This document shows positions 38,040-64,000 of a DNA stretch of 64,000 nucleotides, piece after piece. The position numbers and the translations under genes are program-made. A model generated the notes under the pieces. It did no database searches and was not told the DNA's origin. It saw only the letters and a program-made list of their open reading frames with translations. The DNA comes from Candidatus Woesebacteria bacterium. GTDB lineage: Bacteria; Patescibacteriota; Microgenomatia; UBA1400; UBA1396. Position 1 is the stretch's first letter; each line of letters starts with the position of its first letter. The stretch is taken from assembly GCA_963749595.1 (NCBI GenBank), contig CAVVNJ010000003.1, forward strand, positions 89,532 through 153,531. The letters are read 5' to 3'.

Positions 38040-38077
38040 GCGACTCCTTATTCATCTTTTAGCTTTATAATACCGTA

Positions 38078-44774: not shown

Positions 44775-45130
44775 AATATCTATCCTCCCAGCGTTTTGCC
44801 TCGCAAATTACCCCTCAAAGTAACCTTAAACTGCTCCCTAAACTAACCTGTTTGAGGTTGCTCTAGGGACTTTTAGGCAGATAGGGTCTATTAGTGGTCC
44901 ATCTTTGGCCAGAGTGGGCAAATAGGGGCGGAAATACTTTGGAAACAATCGCTTATCGACCTGTCGCTAAATTAGCCCCTGCTTGCCCGGATGGACTCAA
45001 ATTAACCTAGCAATGGACCCCTATTGCCCATAAGGTCTGAATTAGGACCTGTTTGGGGTCACCTTTGGGAGTAATTAGAGGTCTCTGGAGGGGACAGTTT
45101 GGGAGGCAAATCGCTGGGGAGATATAGATC
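44775..45130. repeat. MITE-like non-coding repeat, copy A (complete)
   Basis: Stops occur in all frames. Positions 44813-45125 are the reverse complement of 63687-64000 at roughly 85-90 percent identity by eye. Its two ends are imperfect inverted repeats of each other: CCAGCGTTTTGCCTCGCAAATTACCCCTC at the left, versus the reverse complement of the right end, CCAGCGATTTGCCTCCCAAACTGTCCCCTC. Confidence 0.6.
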
Positions 45131-45196
45131 CCAAACTCGTGAAGATGGTCGTGAAAACTGCAAAATGCCGTAAGCAAATCTTACCGGAAAAAGAAT

Positions 45197-46385
45197 TTAT
45201 TTCCGGACAAAAAGTATCACATTGGGCAGATCGCGTCCCGGTCCAAGCTTATAGCCGCCGGACCAAAGCGCCGTCGAGCCGCCATCGTCCAAATTAAGCG
45301 CGCTTTCAATGCCCATCTTATTTACCACCCGCGCCGCCTCCGCCACCGTGGCCGAGCGCACCACGCCGATGTAGACCTTGCTGCCGGTGGCGCCGACAAA
45401 ACTGCGGTTGCCCTTGGAGCCCTTTTTTGGATCATCATCGCCGCCAAAAGCCACCGATCCGCCGAAGGTCAGCAGCGGCTGGTTGGCAATGACTGCGTCC
45501 ACGCCGGTGTCTCTCCCCCATTCCGATGAAGCGCGGACAAAGCGGGAGGAGCTACCGAAGAAAATTGCCGCCGGCACCGCGCTATAGACGTTGTTGGCGG
45601 AGTTGAAATAAACCTTGTTTTTATTCATCAGCAGGGTGTCGAAAGTATTGGTTTTTCCGGCGCAGCTTGGGTAGGAAGCCGGACAAAAATAGGAACCGTT
45701 GATGCCGGCAAACGCGCCGGATCGGGAGACGTAGGTCGCCAGGGGCAGAACCGGACAGTTATTACCGACAGTCGCCATCCGAGGCCGTGTCGACAATCAC
45801 GCGGGTCGAGTTCAGGTCAGCGGTGACGATGTCGACTAAATACTCTCCGATGCCATCCACCACCACTTTTTGCCGACTGTAGCCTGAATCAGGCGGGAGG
45901 ATTTTTCGGGCACATTGGCTGGAATAATCAGAGCGGCGGTCAACTGTTGTTGCAGTTTGCCGATTTCGACGTCCAATTTCTGCAGGGTTTCTTTGGCCGG
46001 GTCGTATTCTCGCCGGGACAACTGAACCAAGTGCTTGGGTAAATAACGCGTCCAAGGCTTGCGTTTTGGTTGTTTGTTCGCGCAGCTTGATCAGGTCTTC
46101 GTATTGATTGACGGATTGCCGGAAAGTGCTCTGAATATTTCTCACCTCTTCCGTCAGATCGCGATTACGCTTGATTTGATCTTCGTTGAGCAGGGCGTCG
46201 AAATCGCTTTGCACTCTGGCCAATTCGCCGCTGACGCTGGCCAGCTGGTCATTCAGACGCAGCCCCTCCGCCTCGCTGAAGGCCAGATTTCCGGACAAAT
46301 CTCGATTAACCGTCTGATGGGTCAACGCGACCAATAATAAGCCAACTGCCAAAGAGGCCAAGACAAATGGAAAGTACGGTTTCAA
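45197..46385 (-). pseudogene. Phosphodiester glycosidase (NAGPA/DUF2233)-like protein with an N-terminal TM anchor, frameshifted
   Basis: The C-terminal ORF (45197-45796) has GAFAGINGSYFCP and ESALNLDDGGSTALW. The N-terminal ORF (45762-46385) has a TM helix plus coiled coil, then a nonsense stretch. A third frame (45836-46030) holds YDPAKETLQKLDVEIGKLQQQLTAALIIPANVPEK. About three frame changes are needed. Confidence 0.6.
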
Positions 46386-46476
46386 CCATGGTTAGCGGCC
46401 GAGGCAGATGAAAGACTTTGGCAATTTTCGCCCCGGCTGGAGCCGAATTTATTTTCATACTTAACAATAATATACA

Positions 46477-46901
46477 ATGAAAAATAATTTTGCTACTATA
46501 CCCGTATGGCTAACGGCGAATATTCCCCCCAAGAAGATTCTGGTCGTGGAGGATGACGGCTCGGTGTTGTCTATTCTTACGAATGCCTTGGGCAAACAAG
46601 GCTTCGTCATGCTCGGTGCCCGCGATGGCGAGGAGGGTCTGCAGACCGCTTTCAAAGAGCGTCCGGACTTGATCCTGCTCGATATCATCATGCCTAAGAT
46701 GGACGGGATCGACATGTTAAAACGTTTGCGCCAGGACTCTGGGGGAAAGAAGTCCCGGTGATTGTCTTGACGAATCTAAACCAGGCGGACAAGGTTTCCA
46801 CCGCTTTGGCCAATGAAGTTTTTGACTATTTCGTCAAAGCGAATACCGGTCTGGACGAAGTGATTGACAAGGTCAAAGACCGGTTGGGCCTGCCGGCGTA
46901 G
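46477..46901 (+). pseudogene. CheY-like response regulator receiver, frameshifted at a G5 run
   Basis: KKILVVEDDGSVLSILTNAL...PDLILLDIIMPKMDGIDMLKRLRQDS, then stop at 46761. After GGGGG (46741-46745) the next frame continues WGKEVPVIVLTNLNQADKVSTALANEVFDYFVKA...LGLPA-stop (46899-46901). Confidence 0.7.
46741..46745 (+). repeat. G5 homopolymer at the response-regulator frameshift
   Basis: Counted directly in ctct-ggggg-aaag. Confidence 0.9.
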
Positions 46902-46922
46902 TCGGTCGGGAGGCAATGTTTC

Positions 46923-48373
46923 TTAGGACCCACTCGATTTCTTGCGGTTGACCGGTCTGCGAGCAACAGAGTAAGCGTTGAGCGACATTATTGGCTGGTG
47001 ATTATTGGTCTGCCGAACCACGACTGGTTTATCCAAGATCGGCTCGCCTTTTCTGAGTTGAGTCAGCAGCTCGCGAATCTTGCCCGGTTGTTCGAACAGT
47101 AATTCAGCCTGGGTGCCAATAAAATCCGTCGGAGGTGGTGGAGATAGTGTTCGGCCGAAGGATTGATGAGTAGGATTTTTCCGGCCAAGTCGGTGTGGAA
47201 GAGGAAATCGCGCAACGAAGTAAAGATGTTGCGGTACTGTTCTTCGCTGGAACGAAGACGATAAGTCATGTGCTTGGCCAGCAAGGTGCCGCTCAAGACT
47301 GAGGAGGAGAGAATGGAGACAATTAGAAATACCAGAAAACTCAGAGCTGAGCCCGTAATCAGAATCAGATATGGGACAAGATGTTCTAAGGAGCGGGGCA
47401 AATTCGGGTTTGGGGTCTGAAAAAAAACTACTTCCCAATGTCGCTGCATTACGGGAATGGTTGATTCGTATTGGAAATACTGTTTCGGAATTGACCGAGG
47501 AGTTAGAAATTTGTGGATTGGTACTATAGAGAACTACTTTGCTGGAAATCGGGTTGGGTTTCGGAGACGATAAAATCGATCGAGTTTGTGAGACTAATCG
47601 ACGCAGTTTGGAAAAATCGATCTACGGGAAAGATGGTTAGTATTATTCCCCGCAAGGCTTGGCGCCGATCGTCGAGGACCTATGACCGGTCGCTGTGATC
47701 ATAAAGGGGCGCATAAAGCAGAAGCCGGGTTGGCCGTCGACAAGTTGGTAATCTTTTCGGGCTGCGGCACTGTGGCCGGTATCCCGAGCCATTTCCAGTG
47801 CTTCACGCTTTGGTTCGGAGCGCAGATCAAAACCAAACGCGCAGATGTTGGCCTTAAAAGGTTCAATGAAAGTTACGACGAAGTACTGTCTCGATCAATA
47901 GTTGGCATAATCTGAAAGTTTCGCAGGGCCTCTGTGTCAGCCATCAGGTCAGTTTTATCAGCCCGAACCTGTTGCTCAAATGCGGCGGCCGGCTCTCGGT
48001 TAACCACGGCGAGTATAGGCCAGCGCACTGACTTAGGAGCGTGTTTCGACGACGATCAAGACTTCGGAATATCGACGCCATTCGCCACGGGTGACCTTTT
48101 CGCTGGCCACAAATAGTCCCTGGATGGCCAGAAGCATTCCGCGGTGTGCTGAGAACTGGGTTGTCAATGTGGTCGATGACGCTGTTGGCGGCTTTGAACT
48201 TGTTCGCGTCTTTTGCACCAAATTGTGGTTGTGTCGGAGAAGATTAGCGGTCGAAACGCCAGAAGGAATATAGTGGCCGCAACCATAGCGACGAACAAAC
48301 ATTGCGCGCCGGCAAAAGGCCTAGTTTGGCCATCCGAAGGTTCACTTCGTTTCTGCTCGGAAAAATTGGCCAC
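46923..48373 (-). pseudogene. Decayed sensor protein (TM - CHASE-like - TM - PAS) with no kinase domain
   Basis: Only fragments in several frames. These are a TM helix (CLFVAMVAATIFLLAF), a CHASE-like LLAIQGLFVASEKVTRGEWRRYSEVL, a TM helix (LVPYLILITGSALSFLVFLIVSIL), and PAS-like EEQYRNIFTSLRDFLFHTDLAGKILLINPSAEHYL / TDFIGTQAELLFEQPGKIRELL. No HisKA/HATPase region follows. Confidence 0.4.
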
Positions 48374-48438
48374 TAATATATTATTATGTTACTTAAGCAA
48401 GTTTGACAAGGCGAAAAGCCTTTTGCTAGGGTTGTAAC

Positions 48439-49536
48439 ATGCCACAAATTGATCTCAAGCCCGCTAAAGACGAAAAAATCACGAAAGAAAAGGAAAGAAA
48501 GCCTGCCAAGCGGCCAAAAATTTCTTTGGCCATTGATAAAACCGCTCTAAAAAAATTGTCCTTGGTGGCCGTGGCCTATTCGCACGTGGAACGGGAGTGG
48601 TTTCCCACGGAAGAATCGTATTTAGCGGAAGTTGAAGTGGAAGAACGGTCCCAGGAAGTGTTGGATGAATTAGAGGATCTCGGTATTCCTGCCCGCGGTT
48701 ATCCGGGCAACCAATATTTTTTAACCAATTTGCTGGTTGACCAACCTAGCTTAGTTTTAAACTTAGTTGATACGTTGCGCGGCAAAGACAAATTACAAAC
48801 TTCGGTTCCGGCGGCCCTTGAGCTGTCCAGCATCCCCTACACCGGCTCCGGCATGGAAGGGCTGGTGATTAGCAACAACCGCAATCTCACCAAGCGGCTA
48901 TTACTGGCCTACGACATCCCTACCCCGGATTTTCAGTTTATCCGCCGGGCGGGAACCAAGGTGAGCGAGGACCTTGGCTTTCCGCTGATCGTCAAATTGA
49001 ACGAAAGTGGCGGCAGTGTTGGGATTGACAACAAAGCGGTAAAGGAGTCGCAAAAGGATGTCCAAAAGAAAGTCGACTTAATGGTTTCTCGGTACAAGCT
49101 GCCGGTGGTGGTGGAGCGCTTTATTGACGGTCCGGAGATTACGGTCGTGGTCTATGATGACGGCGAAAAGAAACAGGTTTTTGCCGGGGAAAAAATCTTT
49201 CGGAGCAAGGCCGATGGCAAGCATTTTTTCACCTCGATTGAGAGCTATGACGATATTAGGGCTTACCGCTACAAGTTCATTGACGACGAACTTGCGGAAA
49301 ACAAGATCGCCCGCTTAGCAATTCGAGCCTTCAATGCCCTTCAGTACAAAGATTATGCCAAGTTTGATGTGCGCGTGGATGAAGCGACCGGCATTCCCTA
49401 TTTTACCGATTGTAACGCCAATACTGCTTTTGGGCCGGACTTGGGTTTGCCAATGACTGAGGTGATGGCTTTGCACGGGGTCTCTTTCTCCGATTTACTG
49501 GCCAGCCTGATGAGCAAATATGCCAAACAACTCTGA
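48439..49536 (+). CDS. ATP-grasp enzyme, D-alanine--D-alanine ligase-like
   Basis: 365 aa. LVLNLVDTLRGKDKLQTSVPAALELSSIPYTGSG, NRNLTKRLLLAYDIPTP, FPLIVKLNESGGSVGI, and a Ddl-like C-terminus (DVRVDEATGIPYFTDCNANTAFG). Confidence 0.65.
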   Translation: MPQIDLKPAKDEKITKEKERKPAKRPKISLAIDKTALKKLSLVAVAYSHVEREWFPTEESYLAEVEVEERSQEVLDELEDLGIPARGYPGNQYFLTNLLVDQPSLVLNLVDTLRGKDKLQTSVPAALELSSIPYTGSGMEGLVISNNRNLTKRLLLAYDIPTPDFQFIRRAGTKVSEDLGFPLIVKLNESGGSVGIDNKAVKESQKDVQKKVDLMVSRYKLPVVVERFIDGPEITVVVYDDGEKKQVFAGEKIFRSKADGKHFFTSIESYDDIRAYRYKFIDDELAENKIARLAIRAFNALQYKDYAKFDVRVDEATGIPYFTDCNANTAFGPDLGLPMTEVMALHGVSFSDLLASLMSKYAKQL

Positions 49537-50155
49537 TCAACCACACCGGATGCAGCGGTTTATGCAAATCAGTGATTCTCACTGCGGGGCGGCGGTGACG
49601 CAGATGCTGCTGTCCAATTTAGGCATCATTGTTTCGCAGGAGGAAATTGTTGAAGCGGCTGGGGTTGAGGAAATGATCGAAGATTATGGCATGAATATTC
49701 CGCAGATGGCTTTGGCAGTACGCCGCTTAGCGCCTCACGCCCAGTTTTGGTACAAGGCAGATTCGGAATTGGAAGATTTAGTTTCACTGGTCAATCAATA
49801 TGGCTTTCCCGTCGGGGTGGAATGGCAAGGTGTTTTTGGCCAGGATGATGATGAAGACGAGGATGAAGACGATGAAGAAAACGATTATGGCCACTATAGC
49901 GTGGCCACCAAGATCGACCTGGAAAATGACACCATTGTAATTGTTGATCCCTATCGCGATTTTGGCTTGAAAGATCGTTATTTTTCCCTGGGAGAGTTTC
50001 TTGGTCGTTGGTGGGACACAAATACGGAATTCGATCGTGCGCAGAAGTATTCTCGTCTAGTGGAAGATTATCACATGCTGTTCATTGTGACGGCCAAAGG
50101 ATCATCTTTCCCCAAATTGTTGGGCATGAAGAATACTTGGCCCGATGAACTTTGA
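49520..50155 (+). CDS. C39-like papain-fold cysteine peptidase domain protein with a poly-acidic insert
   Basis: QISDSHCGAAVTQMLLSNLG (Cys motif), DYGHYSVATKID...VIVDPY (His motif), separated by DDDEDEDEDDEEND. Overlaps the ATP-grasp gene by 17 nt. Confidence 0.5.
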   Translation: MPNNSDQPHRMQRFMQISDSHCGAAVTQMLLSNLGIIVSQEEIVEAAGVEEMIEDYGMNIPQMALAVRRLAPHAQFWYKADSELEDLVSLVNQYGFPVGVEWQGVFGQDDDEDEDEDDEENDYGHYSVATKIDLENDTIVIVDPYRDFGLKDRYFSLGEFLGRWWDTNTEFDRAQKYSRLVEDYHMLFIVTAKGSSFPKLLGMKNTWPDEL

Positions 50156-50193
50156 AGCTGACTTTCTCTATTTTTATAGTAGAATAGCGGTCT

Positions 50194-51821: not shown

Positions 51822-51832
51822 TAATTAAAACA

Positions 51833-52102: not shown

Positions 52103-52177
52103 AGGGCTCCTTTGGCTGTTAAATACTTATGTTGATGAATAATTTAGGAGCTGTCAACCGGTATGTGACTTCCTCCG

Positions 52178-52450
52178 TTAAGTTATTTGCGGGTAAACAT
52201 TTGTTGAACGTGAGCGGGAAAATTCAATCCAGTTTTCTTCGGCGCGGCTGTATTTCTCCGCGAAAGAATCATCAACGATCCAGATTGCCAAGGTAAACAT
52301 GTTGGCCACAATCTCCTGCCGTTCGAGTAGGTACACGCCGATTGTATCCGGAAACATCTGAGCATACTCCAACACTTTTGGTAGATCAAAAGCCAGGATT
52401 TTTGCGACCATCAGCCACAATTTATCCGGCCGTTCTCTCCGGATTTTCAA
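52178..52450 (-). CDS. Hypothetical protein, possibly the detached C-terminal part of the HD-domain protein
   Basis: TTG start overlapping the TGA of 52447-52860 (TTGA). DKLWLMVAKILAFDLPKVLEY resembles the helix that follows the HD motif in YfbR-like enzymes. Confidence 0.35.
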   Translation of the reverse strand: MKIRRERPDKLWLMVAKILAFDLPKVLEYAQMFPDTIGVYLLERQEIVANMFTLAIWIVDDSFAEKYSRAEENWIEFSRSRSTNVYPQIT

Positions 52451-52860
52451 CTGCTGAATAGATGGATTCCGGTCAGAAAGTATTCAGTTTTTTCTATCGC
52501 CCGGAAGAGTGTGTGCAGGGCCAAATTTTCACCCGCCACCACCTGACGGTAGGCCTCGATCAATCGATCGGCATCAGGCAGTGCTTGGATTAGTTTTAGG
52601 GCCGCCCGGTTCTCTTTTTGGTCGTCATTTTGGGTTTTATCCGGAGCGGGAATGTCGCCGTAAGTCATTTCGCCAATATCGTGTACCGCCAATGCCAAAC
52701 AAAACTGGAGAAAAGTATCAGGATTCAGGGAGTCACCCAGAATTTCTTCAGCCACCTGGACCAAGTGTTCCTGATGGGATAAGAACAACCGCGGTTGGAC
52801 CCAGCAATTGCAGCCATTCTTCGGTGGTTTCCTGGCTGCGGAATTTTGACCAACGCTCAA
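52447..52860 (-). CDS. HD-domain phosphohydrolase (YfbR-like)
   Basis: LALAVHDIGEMTYGDIPAPDK is the HD...D motif. The N-terminus (TTG start) is uncertain. Confidence 0.45.
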   Translation of the reverse strand: MSVGQNSAARKPPKNGCNCWVQPRLFLSHQEHLVQVAEEILGDSLNPDTFLQFCLALAVHDIGEMTYGDIPAPDKTQNDDQKENRAALKLIQALPDADRLIEAYRQVVAGENLALHTLFRAIEKTEYFLTGIHLFSS

Positions 52861-52910
52861 GTTTGGCTAAATCAGCGCCGTATTGTCAACTATTTGCTAC
52901 AATCCCCCTC

Positions 52911-54257
52911 ATGTTAAGCCAATATAGCGAGCGCTTACCTCAAGCTCAGGAGGTTTTGGATCAATTAAGAAGTCTCCGCGAATTATTAGCGGCTAATATC
53001 GAGGTGCTGGATTTTAAAAGCTTACCGCTTAAAACGATGAGCTCGTCTGAATTTCTCCTTGCCTTTGGTAAACAGATTGGTTCCAAAAAAGAGCTCGGCC
53101 AATTAATCGATCAACGACCAGATCTACAATTGGGTTCTTTTGTTCACGAGCCAGCGCTTATTTTACTTCCCGATTCGGTCAATCCAATCGGTTTGATCGC
53201 GGTGATCACTAGATTGCAGCGCTCTGAAGACCCCTATACCTTTGGTTGTCGCGATCTGTATGTTCTCAATAGTCGTCGGAAGGCGATCAGTTTCCGCAAC
53301 GTGATACCCAGCGGATATCGGTTGGCCATTAGTCTGACCGAGCAAGCGTCGTTCGATGATGAGTCCTGGCAAGAAGGCGTCATGAGCCGTTTTGCCTTTG
53401 ATCCGCCAGAGCAGAAGATTATTTTAGGGGAAATACGCCAGTTTCAGCATCTAAAAGTCGCTCTTCATGAGTCCGGCCACGCCTGGGCTTTTCACTCAAA
53501 GACTGATCGCTATTCCCCGGATCAGTCTCGCTTGCGGGATAGCGATGTCGATCTTTGGCTCGATCAAAAAAAGGGTGCGCGCAAGTTAAAGTTACCGCCA
53601 ATTTACGCGGTGCAAGAAATTTCCTATTCCGAACGCCTGGCTAGTGTCATTGCGAGGTTGACCATGTCCGGTCTGGAAAAAGTTGGCTTCATAGATCAGG
53701 TTGACGACTCGTTTTTGGAGCCATCATTACAAACTTATGATGTGGCTCATGCGCGTTTCATTTTAGAAAATTATCCCGAAGAGGCTAGCAAGCTCTTTGC
53801 CTCAAAATATGCCCGCTCCCCCAAGGGATTGGCACAGAGTGGAGAGATACTGCAGGCAACGAATTCCCTGGAGCACTCCGTCCTCGCCAAAATTGCCACT
53901 TTGGGTAAGCCGACGCAAACCAAGCGACATTTTTTTGGTAATCGGCGAGAAGAAATTTGGGAGAAAACGATTGGCGATGAGAATTATTTAATTGTTATTT
54001 GGCGAACAAGTGACCGAAAATTTATCTCGGTGGAATTTCAACGGTCGCGGGAGACCGGGGACGAGTACGATCAGCCTTGGAGCAAAGTCGAAGTTAACCA
54101 TTTCTTTGGCGCAACGGTTTATTCGGGTGATGGAGACGAAGATGGTGAATTAATTCTTGAGGTTGCGGCCGGAATGGAAGTGCCGGATTATCGGGTGAAG
54201 CTGGCGCGGGTTCAGGAGTTGCTCCAGCAAATTCTCGCGAAGTTCGAGTTGCGCTAG
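52911..54257 (+). CDS. Uncharacterised HExxH protein, tandem paralog A (448 aa)
   Basis: Start moved to MLSQYSERL. TGcTACAAT (52895-52903) lies 7 nt upstream, and the track's longer N-terminus is antisense to the HD gene. Motifs: ALHESGHAW (HExxH), SERLASVIARL, LGKPTQTKRHFFG. Confidence 0.6.
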   Translation: MLSQYSERLPQAQEVLDQLRSLRELLAANIEVLDFKSLPLKTMSSSEFLLAFGKQIGSKKELGQLIDQRPDLQLGSFVHEPALILLPDSVNPIGLIAVITRLQRSEDPYTFGCRDLYVLNSRRKAISFRNVIPSGYRLAISLTEQASFDDESWQEGVMSRFAFDPPEQKIILGEIRQFQHLKVALHESGHAWAFHSKTDRYSPDQSRLRDSDVDLWLDQKKGARKLKLPPIYAVQEISYSERLASVIARLTMSGLEKVGFIDQVDDSFLEPSLQTYDVAHARFILENYPEEASKLFASKYARSPKGLAQSGEILQATNSLEHSVLAKIATLGKPTQTKRHFFGNRREEIWEKTIGDENYLIVIWRTSDRKFISVEFQRSRETGDEYDQPWSKVEVNHFFGATVYSGDGDEDGELILEVAAGMEVPDYRVKLARVQELLQQILAKFELR

Positions 54258-54272
54258 CGTTATAATCGCCTT

Positions 54273-55619
54273 ATGGATAATCGAGAGAATACCGCTACTA
54301 CCGAGAAGCCAACTATTCTTGAACAGCTCAGAACCCTAAACAGATTATTTCAGGGGAAAATTGAAATTAAGGATCTGGCTGATTTGCCTCTTAAAATTCT
54401 AACTCTAGCGGAATTTCAAAAAGCTTATTGGTTAATTCTAATGTCAAAAAAGAAATGTGCCGCTTTGGCCCTAATGCGACCTGAGCTTCAATTTGGATCC
54501 TATGAAGGGTTTCCAGCCTTGATTTGCTATCCCAATGATAAAAATCCCTTTGGATTTATTGCCGTGTTGGACGAAGACTTATCTCCCAATAAGATTGATG
54601 ATTATCGTTTCCGTTGTTCCCGCCTGTTCCTAATGAATGAGCGCCGGCAAACTGTTCCGCTTCAGAGTTTTCTACCAGCGGGAATAGGGCTTAATTTTTT
54701 CTTGGCCAATGCTACCTGGAAAAATGAGAAGGCCGAAGCCGAAGATGAGGCGATAGGTCATAAATTTGCTTTTGAACTTAAGAGTAAGAAGGTTCGTCTG
54801 GGGGAAATTCACCGATCCAATCATCTTGATTGGGCGTTGCATGAGATTGGCCATTCCTGGTGTTTCGATCAGAATATTGACCCATTCTCCAGAGACCAAA
54901 CAAAACTGAGAAGCGATAGTATGCACTTGATTGAGCCTACAGCCAAAAGGCTATTTTTTCGCCACTTAAAGAGACCTTTAACTGGTGTTGTGCAAGAAAT
55001 GATGACTTCCGAAAGATTAGCAAGCATTATTGCCCGGGTTTTACGAGCAATTTTAGAAAAGAACAACTTTACCGCCCATGCGGGTAATTTGCCGCTTGAG
55101 GAAGCAATTCAATCCTATGACAGCTATATTTCCCGATACGTTTTGGAGAATTTCCCGAATCAAGCAAAAGAATTTTTTGCTTCCCGATGGAGCCGATCGA
55201 CAAAAGGTCTAGAACAAAATCGGGAAATATTGCGAATGACTAGCGATCTAGAGAGATCAACCTTGAAGCGTATTCAGGAATTGGGAAAGCCGACGTCAAC
55301 GCGAAAAAATATTTTCACTGGGAAAGCTGTCGAGACATGGGAAAAACAGAATAACTCTGGTGATTTTTTAGTTGATGTTACCCGAACTATTAACGGTCTA
55401 TTCATTTCCGCCAATATTAGCTGGATGGGACGAGAAAAAGACCAGCCTTGGATTATCGTCAGGATAGGTTCTATTTATGGAGCAGCTATTTCCCAGGGAA
55501 TGGGAAGAGATATAGAAATGCTCAATCGAGTTGTCGCAGGAGTTAAAAATCCGGACTATGCCGAAGTCATGAAAAAAGTCGAAACCCAGGTTGATTTAGT
55601 CCTGTCCCAATTTGTCTAA
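54273..55619 (+). CDS. Uncharacterised HExxH protein, tandem paralog B (448 aa)
   Basis: Same length as paralog A and collinear with it. ALHEIGHSW (HExxH), SERLASIIARV, LGKPTSTRKNIFTG. TATAAT at 54261-54266 lies 6 nt upstream of the ATG. Confidence 0.6.
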   Translation: MDNRENTATTEKPTILEQLRTLNRLFQGKIEIKDLADLPLKILTLAEFQKAYWLILMSKKKCAALALMRPELQFGSYEGFPALICYPNDKNPFGFIAVLDEDLSPNKIDDYRFRCSRLFLMNERRQTVPLQSFLPAGIGLNFFLANATWKNEKAEAEDEAIGHKFAFELKSKKVRLGEIHRSNHLDWALHEIGHSWCFDQNIDPFSRDQTKLRSDSMHLIEPTAKRLFFRHLKRPLTGVVQEMMTSERLASIIARVLRAILEKNNFTAHAGNLPLEEAIQSYDSYISRYVLENFPNQAKEFFASRWSRSTKGLEQNREILRMTSDLERSTLKRIQELGKPTSTRKNIFTGKAVETWEKQNNSGDFLVDVTRTINGLFISANISWMGREKDQPWIIVRIGSIYGAAISQGMGRDIEMLNRVVAGVKNPDYAEVMKKVETQVDLVLSQFV

Positions 55620-55629
55620 TTGAAGCTGA

Positions 55630-56040
55630 TCACAAGCTCAAAGAAAGAATATGATCATTGGGATCGGTGCCGTCGCGGATTACCTGATAGCCCCAATGTT
55701 GATAGATGGTGAACGCGTGGAGATTATCTTTCCGACATTCAATGGTAAGGCGCTGCAGACCACGGCGCTTGGCTTCAGCGACCACCGCGTCGTGAAGTTT
55801 GGTTGAGATGCCCTGCCCCTCCCAATCGCGACTCACTTTTAAGTGCCGGACCAAGCCGACAGTCTGGCCATCCGCCAGATCAGTTTCCGGGAAAGTGAAT
55901 AGTAAGTGGATTATGCCCACCACTTTATTCCCCGCCCAAGCCAGCCAGATTAGACGTTCGGCACCGAGGGCGGCAAAGTTTTTGGGCGCGTCCTCTTGGG
56001 CCTCTTCGACTTCCGGCCAATTTTCTTCCCGCCGGTACAA
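55630..56040 (-). CDS. GNAT-family N-acetyltransferase
   Basis: VRHLKVSRDWEGQGISTKLHDAVVAEAKRRGLQRLTIECRKDNLHAFTIYQHWGY (R/QxxGxG/A acetyl-CoA motif). Confidence 0.8.
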   Translation of the reverse strand: MYRREENWPEVEEAQEDAPKNFAALGAERLIWLAWAGNKVVGIIHLLFTFPETDLADGQTVGLVRHLKVSRDWEGQGISTKLHDAVVAEAKRRGLQRLTIECRKDNLHAFTIYQHWGYQVIRDGTDPNDHILSLSL

Positions 56041-56991: not shown

Positions 56992-58736
56992 GGCGCTCCT
57001 TTGGCGACAAAATCGAGTATATCCTCGACAAAAAATGGTCGGCCATCATATTTGAGAAGCTTTTCCCAGAACGGAATTTGGGTCTCTTGCGTTAGTAATG
57101 CTCCCAGTTGACCAAAAGCGTTGTTTTCGATGAGCACCAATCGTTTGGCCCGGCTGGCAAAAGTTCGGAAAGTTTCAGTTTTCAGCGGCCAGAGATATTC
57201 GTAATGCAAATAATTGATTTTTGGCCCGCCGGTTTCCGCCAAAATCGTTTGGGCATCAAGAATGGTATTTTTCGTACTCCCCCAGCCAACGAAAGAAATA
57301 TCCGCTTCGACGGGGCCATAAAGAACCGGTTCCGGCAAAGTGGCGGCCAGGGAGTCTAATTTGCGTAGTCGTTTGGCATACATCTGCCGCGTTGGTTCAG
57401 CCTCCTCGGTTAGGGTGCCGTCCTCCAGGTGTTCGTCGCTATTGGCGTCATAAGTGGCGTCCGCCGAACGCGGCAGCCAGCGCGGCGAAACGCCGCTGTC
57501 GGTGACTTTATAGCGATCGGTTTTCTGTAAACCGGCGAGCTGATCTTCCGAGACTAGTCCGCGCTCAATCGGCAGATTGTCGGGCAGCCGATCGACCTGG
57601 AACAATGATTCGCCGATGTTTTTTTCGGTCAACAAGACGACTGGAATTTGAAACTTTTCGGCGATGTTGAGGGCGCTCTGAACCAAAGTATAGGCCGAGG
57701 CGGCATCGCTGAGCGCTAATACACAGCGGGCATATTCCCCGTGTCCGGCATAGATGGCTAAATTCAAATCGGCGGCGCAGGTCCAGGTTGGCAGACCGGT
57801 CGCCGGCCCGGGACGCTGAGCCAGGACGCAGACAAAAGGCGTTTCGGTCATGCCGGCCAGGGAAAATGACTCGGACATCAAATCGAATCCGCCGCCGGAG
57901 GTACCGACCAAGGCGCGAGTGCCCATGAACATACTGCCGATCGCCATTTGGGCCACCGAAATTTCATCATCAATCTGTTTGACTAAAATATTATTTTCTT
58001 TGGCAATCTCGGCAAAGTAAGTGAGGATAGTGCTCGATGGTGTCATGGGGTAGGCATAGTAGGCGCGGACGCCGGCGGCGACCGCGCCCATGACTAGAAG
58101 CTGATTGCCCGGCACCACCGCGTCGTCTTTATTATTTTCCGTGTGCGGGTAAGGCCAGGCGATCGGTTGGATTTTTTCCAACGGCAACTGCCGGCCTTTT
58201 TCCAAACAAGCGATGTTGCCGTCCAGAACTTTTGGTTTGTCAGCAAACACTTGCCGGAGGACGGTCTGCAGCGTTTCGCTGGATAGACCGAGAATTTGCC
58301 AGAGCGTACCGACCAAAACCGTGTTGGACATGATCCGTTTGCCACCCGTCTCGATCGCGATTTTTTCCGAATCAATGAATTCTTCCTGAATCCGGTTTTG
58401 TTCTAACCAGGCTTTTTCGTCCGGCCGCCAGTCCATGCGGGGCACGCCGTTAATCAGCCGGCCGCCCGGTCGCAGATCGCGAAAATAGTGGTGGACCGAA
58501 ACCCGGCTTAAGCCAATCAGAAGATCACAGCCGCGCGAACTGGCACTGACTGGGCGGCCGCTAACTTCAATCTGGTGAAAAGCATGCCCGCCCATAATCA
58601 GGGACGGATACTCGCGGTAGCTATAAGTGAAAGCCCCCTCGCGTTTGAGGGCCCGCGCAATCAACTCACCCATTGAGCTTAGTCCCTGGCCGTTTTCACC
58701 ACAGATCCGAATGGTTAAGCGGTTTAATTCAGCCAT
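56988..58736 (-). CDS. 2-oxoacid:ferredoxin oxidoreductase alpha subunit (fused gamma-alpha type)
   Basis: Start moved to MAELNRLTIRICGENGQG (ATG at 58736). Motifs: YAYPMTPSS, VGTSGGGFDLM, VLLTEKNIGES. ATGA-type overlap with the beta subunit. Confidence 0.85.
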   Translation of the reverse strand: MAELNRLTIRICGENGQGLSSMGELIARALKREGAFTYSYREYPSLIMGGHAFHQIEVSGRPVSASSRGCDLLIGLSRVSVHHYFRDLRPGGRLINGVPRMDWRPDEKAWLEQNRIQEEFIDSEKIAIETGGKRIMSNTVLVGTLWQILGLSSETLQTVLRQVFADKPKVLDGNIACLEKGRQLPLEKIQPIAWPYPHTENNKDDAVVPGNQLLVMGAVAAGVRAYYAYPMTPSSTILTYFAEIAKENNILVKQIDDEISVAQMAIGSMFMGTRALVGTSGGGFDLMSESFSLAGMTETPFVCVLAQRPGPATGLPTWTCAADLNLAIYAGHGEYARCVLALSDAASAYTLVQSALNIAEKFQIPVVLLTEKNIGESLFQVDRLPDNLPIERGLVSEDQLAGLQKTDRYKVTDSGVSPRWLPRSADATYDANSDEHLEDGTLTEEAEPTRQMYAKRLRKLDSLAATLPEPVLYGPVEADISFVGWGSTKNTILDAQTILAETGGPKINYLHYEYLWPLKTETFRTFASRAKRLVLIENNAFGQLGALLTQETQIPFWEKLLKYDGRPFFVEDILDFVAKGAP

Positions 58737-59196
58737 TGGCACCTCGCAACAACGGCGCGATCCCCTCGGCCCAGGGTTTGACCACCGAATCGAGTTGGGC
58801 ATAGGGATCACCATTTAATTTCAATAAACGGAACAAGACTTCACCATGATTGGCTTTCCAAGCGTCATGGATTAAGTCGATGCCGCGGTTAAAGAGGACG
58901 GCTTCGTAGCGAATATCGCCCAAACCAATAAAACCAGCTTTTTTACCGGTAAAATCCGCCTTTTTCATTTCTTCCAGTAACGGCACAAAGAAAGGATTGA
59001 TCGTGCCACGTTCCCAAGTGGAAGTGGCGAAGATAAAGTTTTGGTTATTTTGAATCAAATCGATTTTGGTTTGTTCGGCGCGGTGTAGTTCGGTCTGGAA
59101 GCCTTGAGCCTTGAGAGCTTCAGCCACGGTCTCCACGACGATCTCGACGTTGCCGGAGGTGGAGGCATAGATGCAGTGGATTACTGACTCGGACAT
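58729..59196 (-). CDS. Flavodoxin
   Basis: 155 aa. HCIYASTSGNVEIV (FMN phosphate loop T/S-x-T/S-G-N), IFATSTWERG, GFIGLGD. TATACT (59205-59210, reverse strand) lies 8 nt upstream of the ATG. Confidence 0.8.
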   Translation of the reverse strand: MSESVIHCIYASTSGNVEIVVETVAEALKAQGFQTELHRAEQTKIDLIQNNQNFIFATSTWERGTINPFFVPLLEEMKKADFTGKKAGFIGLGDIRYEAVLFNRGIDLIHDAWKANHGEVLFRLLKLNGDPYAQLDSVVKPWAEGIAPLLRGANG

Positions 59197-59231
59197 GTTT
59201 AATCAGTATATCAGCCGGGCTGACGATGAGG

Positions 59232-59519
59232 TTAAACTAATCTAAGTTCTACTCTTTTTCCCATTGCTTGGGCTAAGGCCATTAAAGTTTGAAGAGTTGC
59301 GTTTCTTGACCCTGATTCAACTTTAGTGATGGTAGTTCGTGGTACGTTAGAGAGGCGTGCTAAGCCCTCTTGAGTGAGACCCATTTTCTTCCGTTTCTCT
59401 CTAAGAGCCACAATAACTTGGTAGTATTTCTTTTCAGCTTCAATAAGTTTTCGATCATCAGGACTAAGACCCCGGTTAAATTCTTTTAAGGTGATGGTAG
59501 TTTTTTTCCCATTATTCAT
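59232..59519 (-). CDS. XRE-family HTH antitoxin (HigA-like)
   Basis: Start moved to MNNGKK (ATG at 59519). GLTQEGLARLSNVPRTTITKVESGSRNATLQTLMALAQAMG is a Cro/C1 HTH. Confidence 0.75.
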   Translation of the reverse strand: MNNGKKTTITLKEFNRGLSPDDRKLIEAEKKYYQVIVALREKRKKMGLTQEGLARLSNVPRTTITKVESGSRNATLQTLMALAQAMGKRVELRLV

Positions 59520-59766
59520 AGTATCTTCTCCTTTCTTTGGCCTTTCTGAGTTCAGAAAGAGGAGTTTGAGGTGTTTTTTTTGGAAAAGCACAAAGAATAA
59601 TAATAAAATCTTGGCCCGAATAGGCGTAGATTGCCCGCCATTGTCCTTGTTGCTTAACCCTTATCTCAAATAAGTTTATCGAACCAGCCAGCTTCTTAGC
59701 AAATGGTTCTTCCAATTTCCCTTTTTCCTCCAAAATTTCAAACAAGGCTCTGAACTCAATAGTCAA
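59512..59766 (-). CDS. RelE/HigB-superfamily (Gp49-like) toxin, short form
   Basis: 84 aa from a TTG start. LFEIRVKQQGQWRAIYAYSGQDFIIILCAFPKKTPQTPLSELRKAKER fits the Gp49/HigB pattern (ELR...yRi.Y...iill..F.KKtqktP). Overlaps the antitoxin by 8 nt. Confidence 0.6.
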   Translation of the reverse strand: MTIEFRALFEILEEKGKLEEPFAKKLAGSINLFEIRVKQQGQWRAIYAYSGQDFIIILCAFPKKTPQTPLSELRKAKERRRYYE

Positions 59767-59809
59767 GATTAATTTGACAATTCATCAGCTAGAGATCATA
59801 AATGCACTT

Positions 59810-60358
59810 ATGACCAAGCAATTGTTCACCAAAATCCTTATCTGGGGCACTGCTCTTTGGGTCCTTGGCTACCTACTGGGGATAATCCTTTTCATGTTCG
59901 TTCCGACTTCTCTGATCGGATGGATTATTACCCCGATTGGCATTACTTTAACCATCTGGGTTTTGCTCAAGAAATTTGATCAAAAAAACTTCCGTGATTA
60001 TTTTGCGATCAGTTTGCTTTGGACTACCGTTGCCATCGTGCTTGATTATTTTTTGCTGGTCCAATTGTTTAAACCGGCCGACGGCTATTACAAACTGGAC
60101 GTCTATTTGTACTATCTAGCAACGTTCACTATTCCCTTGATCGTCGGATGGAAAAAATCGACATTAGTTTCAAAAAAACCCTGGCGGCTTTTTATGCTTT
60201 CACTAATCGTCGCGATTGTTTCTCCAATTTTGCACAATCTGTTTTATGGTTTGACCGGCATTGAGGAGGGAGTGTTTTTCAGCTTAACTTTTATCGCCAT
60301 GGCAATCGCGGTGGGTTCAGCGCTGTGTGGTTGGCTGAAAGCTTCTGTAAGCCGGTAA
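59810..60358 (+). CDS. Hypothetical integral membrane protein
   Basis: Start moved to MTKQLF (ATG at 59810). TTGACA (59774-59779) plus ATAAAT (59798-59803) lie upstream, with the -10 box 6 nt from the ATG. About five TM helices. Confidence 0.5.
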   Translation: MTKQLFTKILIWGTALWVLGYLLGIILFMFVPTSLIGWIITPIGITLTIWVLLKKFDQKNFRDYFAISLLWTTVAIVLDYFLLVQLFKPADGYYKLDVYLYYLATFTIPLIVGWKKSTLVSKKPWRLFMLSLIVAIVSPILHNLFYGLTGIEEGVFFSLTFIAMAIAVGSALCGWLKASVSR

Positions 60359-60638
60359 TTATTTTTTCTTTTTCAGTTTCATCAATCTTGGCTCGAATAT
60401 CAGGCAGTGATCCGCTCGCGGCTTCCGGATCGGCCAAGTCAATCAGGGTGGAACGAATTGATCCGGCTAAGTAGAGCCAAGCCTGATTTTTGCCGGAAAA
60501 AAAACGGATTAAAGTATTCACGGTAAAGTCGAGTAATTCTTGGTCAGAAAGGTCAGTTTTTTCCGGAAAAATATTTCTGGCCTCCTCGCCGTAGTGATGG
60601 AGGGCGATCTTGAGAGCGGTGAGAATTTGATCAGCCAC
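60291..60638 (-). CDS. Hypothetical protein (115 aa)
   Basis: GTG start. Overlaps the 3' end of 59810-60358. No motifs. Confidence 0.3.
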   Translation of the reverse strand: MADQILTALKIALHHYGEEARNIFPEKTDLSDQELLDFTVNTLIRFFSGKNQAWLYLAGSIRSTLIDLADPEAASGSLPDIRAKIDETEKEKIITGLQKLSANHTALNPPRLPWR

Positions 60639-60700
60639 TAACGGCTCTTTCTCAGTCAGCAGAATCCTTTCGCTAGCGGTATCATAGCACTTGAACTAAC

Positions 60701-62794
60701 CTATACGGTGACTTTAAGTCGCGCATCAAGGATCTGAATTCCCTTTCCCTTTGGAAAAACGACGACCGGATTAAGATCCAACTCAGTGATTTCCGGATGG
60801 TCCGCCATTAACTGCGCTACCCGTCCGATCGTCTCAACGACCGCTTTCCGATCAAGCTTTGGCTGGCCACGAATTCCTTGAAATATCGGACTAAATTCGA
60901 CTTCGTCAACCATCCGCTCCGCGTCGCGCCTAGTTAACGGCACTAAACCGAACCGCACATTTTTAAAAACCTCCGCGTAGATCCCACCCAAACCGAAGAC
61001 CAAATAGGCGCCGGTTTGTGGCTCGCGCTTGGCGCCGATAATAGTTTCCAGGCCGTCCGACACCTGTTGCTCAACCAGAAATCCTTCGATCTTGGCTTTT
61101 GGTTTGTGCCGGGCCACTGTTTTTAACAGATTCAACGCGCTGGCGGCCGCATTGGTCGGGGTAACGTTGAGGAGTGTGCCGCCGACCTCCGATTTATGGA
61201 GAATATCCGGCGAGACAATTTTTAACACCGCGGGTGAACCGACCTTTTTCAGTGCCGTGGCCACTTGGTTTTCCGAGTGGATGAATTGGTGGCGAACCGT
61301 TGGCAGACGATACAAACGTAGCAATTCCAAAACGTCCGGTTCGCTGAGCCAACCCTCCGGATTGTGCCTTTTTAGAAGCTTTACCGCTTGCCGCCGATTG
61401 ATGGAATGGAAGCGAAATGGATTAGTGACGTCGGTTTTGCGCCAGACTTTCCAGCGGTTGAGCAATGAAAGTGAATGTGCGCCCGGTTCAGGGAATTCAG
61501 CGGTGGCTACATCCCCGGTTTGTAAGATTTGGCGACCGGTTTCTACCAAATCGTCACCAAGGAAGGCCGCGACTAAAGGCTTGCGGCTGGCGCGTTTTTG
61601 CTCGGTGATCAGGCGCGCGGTTTTGGCTACCTCGGTCATGGTTTGGGGTGTGAGAATGACTAGGACCGCGTCAACGCCCGGGTCGGCCAAAACCGCGCGC
61701 AATGCCGCTCCATAGCGGATCGCGTCCGCATCGCCGAGGATATCGACCGGATTTTTAATCGATGCTGATGGGGGTAAAAATTTCTGCAGTTCCTGGGTAG
61801 TGGCTGGCGAAAGTTGGGCCAGCTTCAATCCGTCCTTGGCTAATTGATCGGCCGCAATCACCCCAGGACCACCGGCATTGGTCACGACCGCCACGCGATT
61901 GCCTTTGGGAAGTCGGTTGTTGGCAAAGCATTCGGCCAGGGAAAACATCTCCTCCAGCGATTCCGCCCGGATCATGCCGCTTTGGGCGAAAAGAGCCTGG
62001 TAAGCGCCATCACTGCCGCCGAGAGCTCCGGTGTGCGATCGGGCCGCGGCCGCCCCAGATTCGGTTCGTCCAGACTTCAATACAATAATCGGTTTCGGCC
62101 GCGGCCCGCGATGCAATTTCTTGGCAGTGCGTAGTAATTCCGGCAGGGCCGTTAATTGTTCAACGTACAGCATGATGACTTGAGTTTTGGGATCTTGGCG
62201 TAGATACTCAAGAATCTCCTGTTCGCCAATTTGCGCTTTATTACCCAGGCTAATGAAGTTGGACATCCCTAAACCACTGCCGCGGGCATAATCCAACACC
62301 GCCGCTCCCAAAGCTCCGCTTTGCGAAACAAAGGCCACGTTTCCCTCACCCGGCATTACCGGTGCGAACGTAGCATTTAAATGCAAAAAAGGACTGATAA
62401 TTCCGAGACAATTTGGGCCAATCAAGGTCAGGTGATATTTTTGGGCGATGGCTAGCAGTTCTTTCTCCCCCGCTTCGTTGCCGGACTCGCGAAAGCCGGA
62501 GCTAATGACCAGGGCCGCGGGAATTTTTTTCCGGCCAACTTCGATTAAAACTTTGGGAACGATTGGCGCCGGAGTAGCGATGATCGCCAAGTCGACGTGC
62601 TGGGGAATCGGTTTGACCGTGGGATAAACTTTCCGGCCAAACAATTCGCCGCCCTTAGGATTGACTGGGAAAATTTTACCCTGATAGCCCTGGGTAACCA
62701 GATTTTTGACCAGATCATTACCCACGCTGCCCGGCTGACTGGAAGCGCCAATCACGGCAATGGAGTGTGGTCGGAAAACAGCGTCTAAGTTCAT
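60701..62794 (-). CDS. ADP-forming acetyl-CoA synthetase (fused alpha-beta, acetate--CoA ligase family)
   Basis: 697 aa. SIAVIGASSQPGSVG (CoA-binding), FVSQSGALG, RSHTGALGG (phosphohistidine loop), then a C-terminal ATP-grasp domain. Confidence 0.9.
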   Translation of the reverse strand: MNLDAVFRPHSIAVIGASSQPGSVGNDLVKNLVTQGYQGKIFPVNPKGGELFGRKVYPTVKPIPQHVDLAIIATPAPIVPKVLIEVGRKKIPAALVISSGFRESGNEAGEKELLAIAQKYHLTLIGPNCLGIISPFLHLNATFAPVMPGEGNVAFVSQSGALGAAVLDYARGSGLGMSNFISLGNKAQIGEQEILEYLRQDPKTQVIMLYVEQLTALPELLRTAKKLHRGPRPKPIIVLKSGRTESGAAAARSHTGALGGSDGAYQALFAQSGMIRAESLEEMFSLAECFANNRLPKGNRVAVVTNAGGPGVIAADQLAKDGLKLAQLSPATTQELQKFLPPSASIKNPVDILGDADAIRYGAALRAVLADPGVDAVLVILTPQTMTEVAKTARLITEQKRASRKPLVAAFLGDDLVETGRQILQTGDVATAEFPEPGAHSLSLLNRWKVWRKTDVTNPFRFHSINRRQAVKLLKRHNPEGWLSEPDVLELLRLYRLPTVRHQFIHSENQVATALKKVGSPAVLKIVSPDILHKSEVGGTLLNVTPTNAAASALNLLKTVARHKPKAKIEGFLVEQQVSDGLETIIGAKREPQTGAYLVFGLGGIYAEVFKNVRFGLVPLTRRDAERMVDEVEFSPIFQGIRGQPKLDRKAVVETIGRVAQLMADHPEITELDLNPVVVFPKGKGIQILDARLKVTV

Positions 62795-62824
62795 GGGTGG
62801 CCTCGAACTCAGTTTAGCAAATTA

Positions 62825-63637
62825 TCAATCGATTAAGGACTCGATGATCTTTTTAGCATCGGCCGCAAAGATATCACGCGGTAGAGCTCCGGGAACGATC
62901 ACTGCTTCATTATCCGACGGGCGCACGAAGATGGTGGTTGGCACGCCGGTCACGCTAAACATTGACATCCGGACTTGGCTACCATGCACCGTTTGGTCAA
63001 AATAGGTTTCGTTTTGATTAATTTCGGTCAGGCAGGTGACATATTCTTCCCGACTTGACACGTCATAGCGATAGCTCGAATCGCCATTTTCCCGAACTAG
63101 ATCAGCCATATTTTCCCAAACGCGATTTTGTTGGTTCAAGCAATAAAGCGAGGCAATCGCCACCCGCAGGCTAGGGTTGTCTCGGTACGGTAGGACCGTA
63201 TGCAGATACCAAATCCGCAGTTGATCGGGATATTTTTGGCGCAGATCAGCAATATTTTCGGTCAGTGTCCGGCCGCTAAACCCTTCTTCGGTCAAATCGG
63301 CAAAAACAAAAACTTCCAGATCAGGGTTGCTTGGTCCGGTCGAGTAACCTTGGCGTAACTCATCAGTAATAGAGACTTTTTTGCGCGGGTAAGTGCTACC
63401 CGTTGAGCTGGGGAATTCGGTCTCAGGTAGATTAGCAGATGGAGTCGCGGTTGGTATTGGCGAGGATACCAGCTCATCAGGAATGGAATTGAGACCTCGT
63501 TGTAGACCCCAGAAATATCCAATCACTCCGGCTTCGACAATGAGCATTAAAACTAAAACGATAATTGCCAGTATTAATAGTCGATAACGATGGGGTTGAG
63601 CAGCAGCGGGAGTCGGAAATGGCAAGTGATCTCTCAT
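62825..63637 (-). CDS. DsbA-like thioredoxin-fold protein with N-terminal TM anchor and no CxxC motif
   Basis: Start moved to MRDHLPF (ATG at 63637, with TATAAT 9 nt upstream on this strand). TM helix LLILAIIVLVLMLIV. DsbA-like VFVFADLTEEGFS (where CPxC is expected), LYCLNQQNRVW, VTGVPTTIFV. Confidence 0.5.
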   Translation of the reverse strand: MRDHLPFPTPAAAQPHRYRLLILAIIVLVLMLIVEAGVIGYFWGLQRGLNSIPDELVSSPIPTATPSANLPETEFPSSTGSTYPRKKVSITDELRQGYSTGPSNPDLEVFVFADLTEEGFSGRTLTENIADLRQKYPDQLRIWYLHTVLPYRDNPSLRVAIASLYCLNQQNRVWENMADLVRENGDSSYRYDVSSREEYVTCLTEINQNETYFDQTVHGSQVRMSMFSVTGVPTTIFVRPSDNEAVIVPGALPRDIFAADAKKIIESLID

Positions 63638-63683
63638 TTTAAAGAGATTATAGTACTTTTCGTCGTGTTTAGTTCGTCGAGGA

Positions 63684-64000
63684 ATATATATCTCCCCACA
63701 CTTTTGCCTCCCAAACTGTCCCCTCCAGAGACCTCTAATTACTCCTAAAGGTGACCCCAAACAGGTCCTAATTCAGACCTTATGGGCAATAGAGGTCCAG
63801 TACTAGGTTAGTTTGAGTCCACCTGGGCAAGCAGGAGGTAATTTGGGGACAGGCCGATAAGCGATTGTTTCCAAAGTATTTCCGCCCCTATTTGCCAGCA
63901 CTGACCAAGGATGGACAACTGTTGGACCCTATCTGTCCAAAAGTCCCTAGAGTAACCCCAAACAGGTTAGTTTAGGGAGCAGTTTAAGGTTACTTTGAGG
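63684..64000. repeat. MITE-like non-coding repeat, copy B (inverted relative to copy A; truncated by the window end)
   Basis: 63687-64000 aligns to the reverse complement of 44813-45125. Stops occur in all frames. The 5' extension of the track ORF 62825-63760 into this element is spurious. Confidence 0.6.

Follow-up and report, generated by a model that had tools for sequence, protein, structure and literature searches.

Prokaryotic MITEs are shorter than 500 bp, carry terminal inverted repeats, give rise to stem-loop transcripts and are flanked by direct repeats only while a copy is young (PMC10969869). Among palindromic repeats, ERIC is present in 30 to 700 copies per genome (PMC10969869). 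We analysed a 64-kb stretch of DNA (hereafter the window), whose host is probably a Patescibacteria MAG and in which a non-coding repeat occurs twice in inverted orientation. Patescibacteria (CPR) have very small genomes, and we found no description of MITEs in this group in the literature that we searched. The repeat apparently represents a new MITE-like family that is restricted to its lineage, and we consider it fairly probable that the element is the decayed relic of a non-autonomous MITE-like transposon. In common with the MITEs delineated in PMC10969869, it has a suitable size, no coding capacity, terminal inverted repeats, a stem-loop and an intergenic position.

A palindromic non-coding element in two inverted copies

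The repeat search of the window reported a single long inverted pair, with arms of 320 nt (44813-45132 and 63681-64000) that are 90% complementary and lie 18,548 nt apart. Copy A and the reverse complement of copy B differ at 31 of the 320 positions, with no gaps (90.3% identity; BLASTN, E = 4e-125), and these differences comprise 19 transitions and 12 transversions. For the 23-nt motif at the end of the element, 0 chance matches are expected in the window. The original prediction of two inverted copies with about 85-90% identity is thus confirmed; the coordinates given at the time (44813-45125 and 63687-64000) do locate the repeat and fall a few bases short at its inner end (45132/63681). Homology extends to base 64000, as would be consistent with a copy B cut by the window edge. 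At the inner end it stops at 45132/63681, and none of the six positions just past this boundary match (0/6), the flanks being unrelated. Because the homology between the copies and the palindrome described below end at the same base, 45132, the element is a discrete unit and not an arbitrary duplicated stretch. The features are listed in Table 1.

Table 1. Coordinates of the repeat element and of its parts in the window.
Feature	Position	Strand	Remarks
Copy A, complete 360-bp element	44773..45132	+	non-coding imperfect palindrome over its whole length
Copy B, 3' 320 nt of the element	63681..64000	-	last ~40 nt beyond the window edge
Left terminal inverted repeat, copy A	44773..44818	+	core CCAGCGTTTTGCCTCGCAAATTACCCCTC
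Right terminal inverted repeat, copy A	45086..45132	+	GAGGGGACAGTTTGGGAGGCAAATCGCTGG...; 23-nt core identical in copy B
Element end sequence			CCAGCGWTTTGCCTCSCAAA
Central block	44917..44958	+	100% identical between A and B, from the positions of the 31 differences
Further conserved blocks, A versus B	44813-44854 and 45021-45110	+	the latter with one difference
Variable arms between the conserved blocks	44855-44916 and 44959-45020	+	18-21% difference between A and B
Candidate 4-bp direct repeat ATAT	44776..44779, partner 45122-45125	.	requires 44780/45121 to be the true ends

The self-complementarity of the element is far beyond chance. Positions 2-358 (44775-45131) align with the reverse complement of the element itself (nhmmer, E = 5.9e-21), to which it is 63% identical, with an alignment score of 144 versus -61 +/- 21 for shuffled sequences. 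In copy A this self-complementarity ends at 44773-44775 on one side and at 45131-45132 on the other. As DNA, the element is predicted to form a hairpin of -70 kcal/mol (z = -6.5). The terminal inverted repeats of copy A are about 45 nt long and are identical in 36 of the 47 columns when the left one is aligned with the reverse complement of the right one. They had been described as repeats of about 30-35 nt; the sequences quoted were right and the repeats reach further out (Table 1). The GC content of the element is 48.1%, versus 49.1% for the window, and the element lacks the AT-rich composition that is typical of MITEs but not obligatory for them.

Neither copy encodes a protein. All six frames of the element hold several stops, with a longest stop-free run of about 40-50 codons, and no ORF inside 44773-45132 reaches 60 aa, in agreement with the earlier observation that the repeat has no open frame. 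The ORF at 62825..63760 enters copy B only if a TTG further upstream is taken as its start. With the ATG at 63634 as start codon the ORF has 269 aa, and the protein recorded in the database for this gene (270 aa) is 100% identical to it and covers it fully. Both copies are intergenic. Copy A is flanked by two genes whose 3' ends converge on it, one for a SAM-methyltransferase (43919-44764, + strand) and a frameshifted one for NAGPA (45197-46385, - strand). The right end of copy B lies 46 nt upstream of the start codon (ATG at 63634) of a minus-strand gene for a thioredoxin-like membrane protein.

The repeat pair breaks short-read assemblies: in a Logan assembly made independently for the same organism (ERR12037366), a contig runs colinear with 58.4-63.7 kb of the window and ends within copy B, at about window position 63732, where 31-mers become common to copy A. 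The practical value of the pair lies mostly in annotation, and it bears on how the contiguity of this MAG is judged.

Origin of the two copies

We favour the MITE reading in part because the boundary of the element agrees by two independent criteria, the homology between A and B and the palindrome. The terminal inverted repeats of about 45 nt would be the binding and cleavage sites of a transposase supplied in trans, and the body of the element would be an old foldback whose left and right halves are about 63% alike. According to this scenario, the palindromic unit arose first and may then have occupied at least two intergenic sites, after the lineage had split from a relative of ~75% identity. 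The copies would have diverged by about 10% since then, with patches possibly homogenised by gene conversion. That the element was copied by transposition, that a transposase acted in trans and that gene conversion took place are inferred. The earlier classification as a MITE or another dispersed repeat fits the 360-bp non-coding intergenic hairpin with terminal inverted repeats, and is left without a convincing target-site duplication.

We searched widely for further copies. A profile built from A and B retrieved no third copy in the window and in all fetched loci (nhmmer). The pattern GAGGGG-N3-4-TTTGSGAGGCAAA, which fits all three visible ends of the element, had 8 matches in 185,579 species genomes and 13 in JGI/ENA metagenome contigs, all of them pattern-only and due to chance; this pattern search of genome and metagenome collections also showed no full-length IS with the ends of the element. 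There was no match to the element in plasmids and phages (blastn), nor to a 26-nt central block in viral contigs. The concatenated six-frame translation, aimed at spurious ORFs called in other copies, had 0 matches in 5.8 billion protein clusters. In the window and the collections covered, the known copies are therefore two, 18.5 kb apart and with unrelated flanks.

The traces that transposition might have left are equally scarce. There is no convincing target-site duplication around the one complete copy, for which the grid of boundary pairs gives several equal matches of 4-5 nt, at chance level. Besides the candidate direct repeat of copy A in Table 1, copy B also has ATAT after GGGGAG, and the empty orthologous spacer of a relative (see below) is too diverged to align for a target-site duplication. 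Domain scans revealed no transposase, recombinase, integrase or invertase among the scanned window ORFs, which bears out the earlier statement that the window has no transposase. Guide-RNA-type elements (IS110, IS605) were discarded, as Pfam and NCBIfam scans showed no such genes in the window. Several observations count against a MITE: the two known copies, the lack of a convincing target-site duplication and of a transposase, and a composition that is not AT-rich. The clustering of the differences between A and B also does, since simple neutral decay does not predict it.

The two copies could instead stem from a one-off local inverted duplication, in which a pre-existing palindrome was copied nearby by template switching or recombination, with no transposase; the genome would then have no more than two copies. 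It is known that template switching during replication is frequent at palindromes. Such an event would account for two known copies that are close together, for the lack of target-site duplication and transposase, and for an element with no relative in any collection searched. However, the duplicated stretch and the palindrome end at the same base, 45132, which is unlikely for a random segmental duplication, and the flanks share nothing (at the inner end, the outer end of B being beyond the window). We thus regard a local duplication as rather unlikely.

The distribution of the differences between the copies raises the question of function. They are clustered, the four longest identical runs summing to 173 nt (P about 0.0005, 20,000 permutations). 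A diversity-generating retroelement repeat pair was rejected as a candidate, given that neither copy codes for protein and that the substitutions show no specificity for adenine. The invariant blocks could be under selection if the element were a functional palindromic repeat, either an ERIC/REP-like element acting in cis or the gene of a small RNA. Roles suggested for the invariant subterminal and central blocks in such a repeat are those of protein-binding sites or of a hairpin that stabilises or terminates mRNA. Such a function would be in line with the alternation of invariant blocks of 42-90 nt with arms that differ by 18-21%, with the very stable fold, and with the position of A between convergent 3' ends and of B in a 5' leader, which makes the transcription of both probable. 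MITE-derived sRNAs and terminators are also known (PMC10969869).

Yet the mosaic is accounted for equally well by patchy gene conversion, and the remaining evidence speaks against a functional RNA. The search of the window with Rfam 15 gave 0 matches at gathering thresholds, and none at E up to 1 beyond a chance match to a miRNA model (E = 0.33, 18.6 bits versus a gathering score of 90); the element, which the original prediction had left open to such an assignment, matches no known structured RNA family. Seventeen base pairs are altered between A and B, of which 9 are broken and 0 changed on both sides, so that there are no compensatory changes in this comparison of A with B only. The two strands have similar RNA folds (z = -6.75 and -6.81). 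Such equal folding is expected of a palindrome at the DNA level and not of a strand-specific RNA gene. Neither copy holds a sigma-70-like promoter or an intrinsic terminator, and their orientation relative to the neighbouring genes is inconsistent. Overall, we find it improbable that the element is a functional repeat of this kind. More improbable still is an element from a still-mobile or recently silenced Patescibacteria (CPR) transposon family, whose invariant blocks would bind an unrecognised transposase or recombinase and whose pair would flip the 18.5-kb core-fermentation block.

The DNA between the copies

The two copies were originally thought to bracket an accessory segment. This segment has three frameshifted genes at 45.2-47.5 kb, and holds two HExxH paralogues (38% identity), an HTH/XRE gene, flavodoxin and pyruvate:ferredoxin oxidoreductase. 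The frameshifted genes, the HExxH pair and the redox genes had been correctly listed, together with a toxin-antitoxin pair whose toxin is putative, but the label "accessory" does not suit a segment with core fermentation genes (POR alpha/gamma and beta subunits, ADP-forming acetyl-CoA synthetase and flavodoxin).

The comparison with relatives contradicts the bracketing of accessory DNA. We used two contigs of one JGI metagenome (3300037424), L010 and L024, which have about 74-76% nucleotide identity to the window and lack the element. The genes for MFS, methyltransferase, NAGPA and response regulator are contiguous across site A in L010, in the same order and orientation. Further inside the segment, Ddl, C39, MarR, GSDH, a small ORF and GNAT are colinear in L024, and only 52140-55659 (3.5 kb) is extra in the window compared with these contigs. 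The orthologous spacer at site A in L010 is empty: its 195 bp do not resemble the element, although the genes on either side align at 76%. In another relative (L009) the spacer at site A contains 3.2 kb of other genes. Hence, this spot accepts insertions. The site-A spacer differs in every relative seen; one further contig (L027) ends 20 nt past the methyltransferase stop, with a tail that is unrelated to the element. On the B side we found no synteny, the only homologue of the gene adjoining copy B being 36% identical and not syntenic.

Judging from this synteny, the DNA between the copies is ordinary conserved native chromosome and not a mobile island. A MITE-bounded accessory island would have been an interesting claim, and synteny contradicts it. 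The inverted copies are in principle a potential substrate for RecA-mediated inversion. The present gene order is nevertheless the ancestral one and nothing shows that an inversion happened: site A has the orientation seen in the relative, and the sign of the GC skew does not differ between the segment and the DNA outside it. A composite transposon would be missing as a block from relatives in which its outer flanks are joined, which is not the case in L010 and L024; nor do the scanned ORFs include the site-specific recombinase gene that an inverton or shufflon would have beside or inside the segment.

These results make it extremely unlikely, and at the A junction already largely refute, that the copies terminate a single mobile or invertible unit of 19 kb with accessory genes: the inverted copies do enclose pseudogenes and a 3.5-kb strain-specific insert, and MITE pairs do flank and mobilise integrons in Acinetobacter (PMC10969869), but the element-free relative joins the outside genes (MFS, methyltransferase) directly to the inside ones (NAGPA, response regulator), the interior is further colinear in L024 and contains core energy-metabolism genes, transposase, integrase and invertase domains are absent from the scanned window ORFs, and GC skew keeps its sign within the segment. 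Such a unit could take the form of a MITE-flanked composite transposon, of an element with long terminal inverted repeats or of a recombinase-driven invertible segment.

Comparison with known systems

The decayed MITE-like relic that we favour changes no concept. As a repeat family for which public sequences amounting to hundreds of gigabases contain no relative, it is a data point on mobile-element relics, probably in a reduced CPR genome. It is similar to the prokaryotic MITEs QMITE2 of Coxiella, MITEAba12 of Acinetobacter and the Correia elements of Neisseria (PMC10969869): all are shorter than 500 bp, non-coding and intergenic, with terminal inverted repeats and a very stable stem-loop. 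Old MITE copies may have lost their direct repeats. On the other hand, its terminal repeats are about 45 nt long, versus 4-30 nt in typical MITEs, and unlike these it is not AT-rich, is known from only two copies, and lacks both a recognisable parent IS and any relative by sequence in the collections searched.

The ERIC/IRU repeats (enterobacterial repetitive intergenic consensus) resemble the element in that the whole unit, and not its tips alone, is an imperfect palindrome, and in their place in intergenic spacers that are probably transcribed. However, they are imperfect palindromes of 127 bp, whereas the element is about three times longer, has no sequence similarity to them and comes from a different phylum. 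The arrangement of the pair recalls the MITEs that flank class 1 integrons in Acinetobacter, where elements of a few hundred bp also lie around a multi-gene stretch (PMC10969869). In contrast to those pairs, the copies described here are 10% diverged instead of identical, and the DNA that they bracket, unlike the integron cassette, is syntenic native chromosome in the element-free relative.

A discrete palindromic repeat in two inverted copies

[quoted passage not shown] The inverted pair of the original prediction was recovered to within a few bases: a search of the window returned a single long inverted repeat, whose arms of 320 nt are 90% complementary and 18,548 nt apart (BLASTN of A against B, E = 4e-125). 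Aligned without gaps, the copies differ at 31 positions (19 transitions and 12 transversions), and their homology extends to the final base of the window, which therefore truncates copy B. The inner junction of this copy is confirmed by a second assembly of this organism, made independently (Logan), which encodes an identical 697-aa protein. That assembly ends inside copy B, a break explicable with just two copies.

Compared with its own reverse complement, copy A aligns from position 2 to position 358 (nhmmer E = 5.9e-21; 63% identity over 375 columns; score of 144 against -61 +/- 21 for shuffles), best in the outermost 46-47 nt (36 of 47 columns identical). Self-complementarity stops at 44773-44775 and 45131-45132, and homology between the copies at 45132/63681, past which the next bases match at 0 of 6 positions. 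The right boundary thus agrees by two independent criteria, which makes the repeat a discrete palindromic element of 360 bp.

We regard this element as probably an old relic of a non-autonomous transposon. As a candidate target-site duplication, the tetranucleotide ATAT borders an element trimmed slightly at both ends, in the one complete copy only and with an empty site that is not alignable; the right end of copy B is likewise followed by ATAT, and a grid search over boundaries gave several matches of 4-5 nt that are as good. A search pattern built to fit all three visible ends hit 8 sites among 185,579 species genomes, and metagenome contigs gave 13 more. In BLAST and nhmmer comparisons the similarity was confined to the pattern itself, hence all are chance hits. 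Plasmids, phages and viral contigs yielded nothing, and the six-frame translation matched no called protein among 5.8 billion protein clusters. A one-off local duplication is an unlikely source of the pair, the repeated unit not being an arbitrary duplicated stretch.

Less likely again is a palindrome that functions as an RNA or cis element. The repeat folds into a long hairpin as DNA (z = -6.5); the RNA folds of the two strands are equally good (z = -6.75 and -6.81), favouring a palindrome at the DNA level over a strand-specific RNA. The proposed Rfam check gave no family at gathering thresholds in the window, and the sole match around copy A is a chance miRNA (E = 0.33). Neither sigma-70-like promoters nor intrinsic terminators were found inside the copies. 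As predicted, there is no open frame: stops occur in every frame, and no ORF within the element reaches 60 aa.

The differences between A and B are unevenly distributed (permutation, P about 0.0005). Four runs of 42-46 nt are identical, one in the left subterminal region, one at the centre and two within the right subterminal region; alternating with them, two arms diverge by 18-21%. This mosaic may come from gene conversion acting in patches on the two copies, or from constraint acting on the blocks at the ends and centre. The differences hit 17 predicted base pairs: 9 lose their pairing, the other 8 retain it despite a substitution on one side, and double-sided compensation occurs in none.

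Coordinates of the features (in the window unless stated)
Feature	Position	Strand	Remarks
Tandem paralogue array	2981-25931	+	directly upstream of the MetRS gene
Stretch poor in ORFs	36274-38078		about 1.8 kb, 54% GC, no ORF >137 aa on either strand, no Rfam match
Aligned to contig L010	41230-44660, then 45195-47296
Site A spacer on L010	3411-3605 of L010		short direct and inverted repeats of type GGATCTGACCCGGATCGGATC
Extra C-terminal methyltransferase codons	44680-44764		in non-conserved spacer just before copy A
Copy A	44773-45132		complete
ATAT-flanked version	44780-45121
Arms of the inverted repeat	44813-45132 and 63681-64000
Split genes	45197-47450		directly inside copy A
Aligned to contig L024	48374-52139 and 55660-56215		Ddl, C39 peptidase-like, MarR, GSDH, small ORF, GNAT
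Absent from L024	52140-55659		3.5 kb
Colinear with Logan assembly	58.4-63.7 kb
End of Logan assembly	~63732
Copy B	63681-64000	-

Gene order in relatives and the interval between the copies

All named homologues of the methyltransferase next to copy A come from Microgenomates or Patescibacteria, and the host is hence probably a CPR bacterium. Two contigs of JGI metagenome 3300037424, L010 and L024, represent a relative with about 74-76% DNA identity to the window. At site A, the methyltransferase/NAGPA spacer, the 534 bp that contain copy A in the window are replaced in L010 by unrelated short repeats over 195 bp. Since L010 aligns on both sides, the outer genes (MFS, methyltransferase) adjoin the inner ones (NAGPA, response regulator, PAS) with unchanged orientation in a genome free of the element, and site A now has the ancestral orientation. 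Compared with L024, only one stretch is extra in the window. The interval includes pyruvate:ferredoxin oxidoreductase subunits, flavodoxin and ADP-forming acetyl-CoA synthetase, which are core, not accessory, in a fermentative organism. The claim that the copies bracket an accessory segment is thus contradicted by the synteny and by these genes. That they delimit a mobile or invertible unit is highly improbable, as outer and inner genes adjoin in element-free L010. The expected absence of a transposase held: no transposase, integrase or invertase domain occurs in any window ORF scanned. GC skew has the same sign inside and outside the interval. Composite transposon, long-terminal-repeat element and inverton were rejected on synteny, missing recombination domains and unflipped skew.

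In a second relative the site A spacer is filled by 3.2 kb with three extra genes, and for this reason we consider it an insertion hot spot. This intergenic spot is different in every relative seen. The methyltransferase ORF has 281 aa versus 250-259 aa in the closest relatives, and its reading frame may now run past a lost ancestral stop to the annotated one. The NAGPA phosphodiester glycosidase, response regulator and PAS sensor genes are each split over 2 or 3 frames, compared with intact L010 genes; either local pseudogenisation or errors in the local assembly account for this. Window genes elsewhere look intact. The stretch absent from L024 contains HD-domain fragments and two paralogous ORFs (582 and 448 aa, 38% identical, one HExxH motif each) without matches in Pfam or NCBIfam.

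A tandem array of an almost orphan family

The window also contains about 25 head-to-tail paralogous genes (298-334 aa, 36-43% mutual identity); 28 columns of their alignment are invariant, among them those of a 'DDVAHSG' motif. Matches are weak and limited to PRTase-CE in Pfam (8 of 23 members) and phosphoribosyltransferases in the PDB. Against 1.84 billion cluster representatives, the family profile retrieved 26 proteins at E < 1e-30, 23 of them encoded in the window. P0153, one of the retrieved proteins from outside the window, is in tandem with another copy in the relative's sample (SRR22388142). We consider this very large tandem expansion of an almost orphan family far more unusual than the MITE-like repeat. 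The stretch poor in ORFs may be what remains of a gene, or a non-coding feature not yet recognised.

Comparison with known repeats

In the papers searched we found no description of MITEs in Patescibacteria/CPR. Prokaryotic MITEs are shorter than 500 bp, with terminal inverted repeats of about 4-30 bp and stable stem-loops; direct repeats occur in younger copies and fade with age, and the elements are usually AT-rich and intergenic (PMC10969869). The element agrees in size, terminal repeats, non-coding nature, location and structure, but it is not AT-rich (48.1% GC, the same as the window). In Acinetobacter, MITE pairs flank and mobilise integrons (PMC10969869), a known analogue of the bracketing idea that synteny contradicts here. 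The whole-length palindrome is closer to ERIC than to a simple pair of IS ends.
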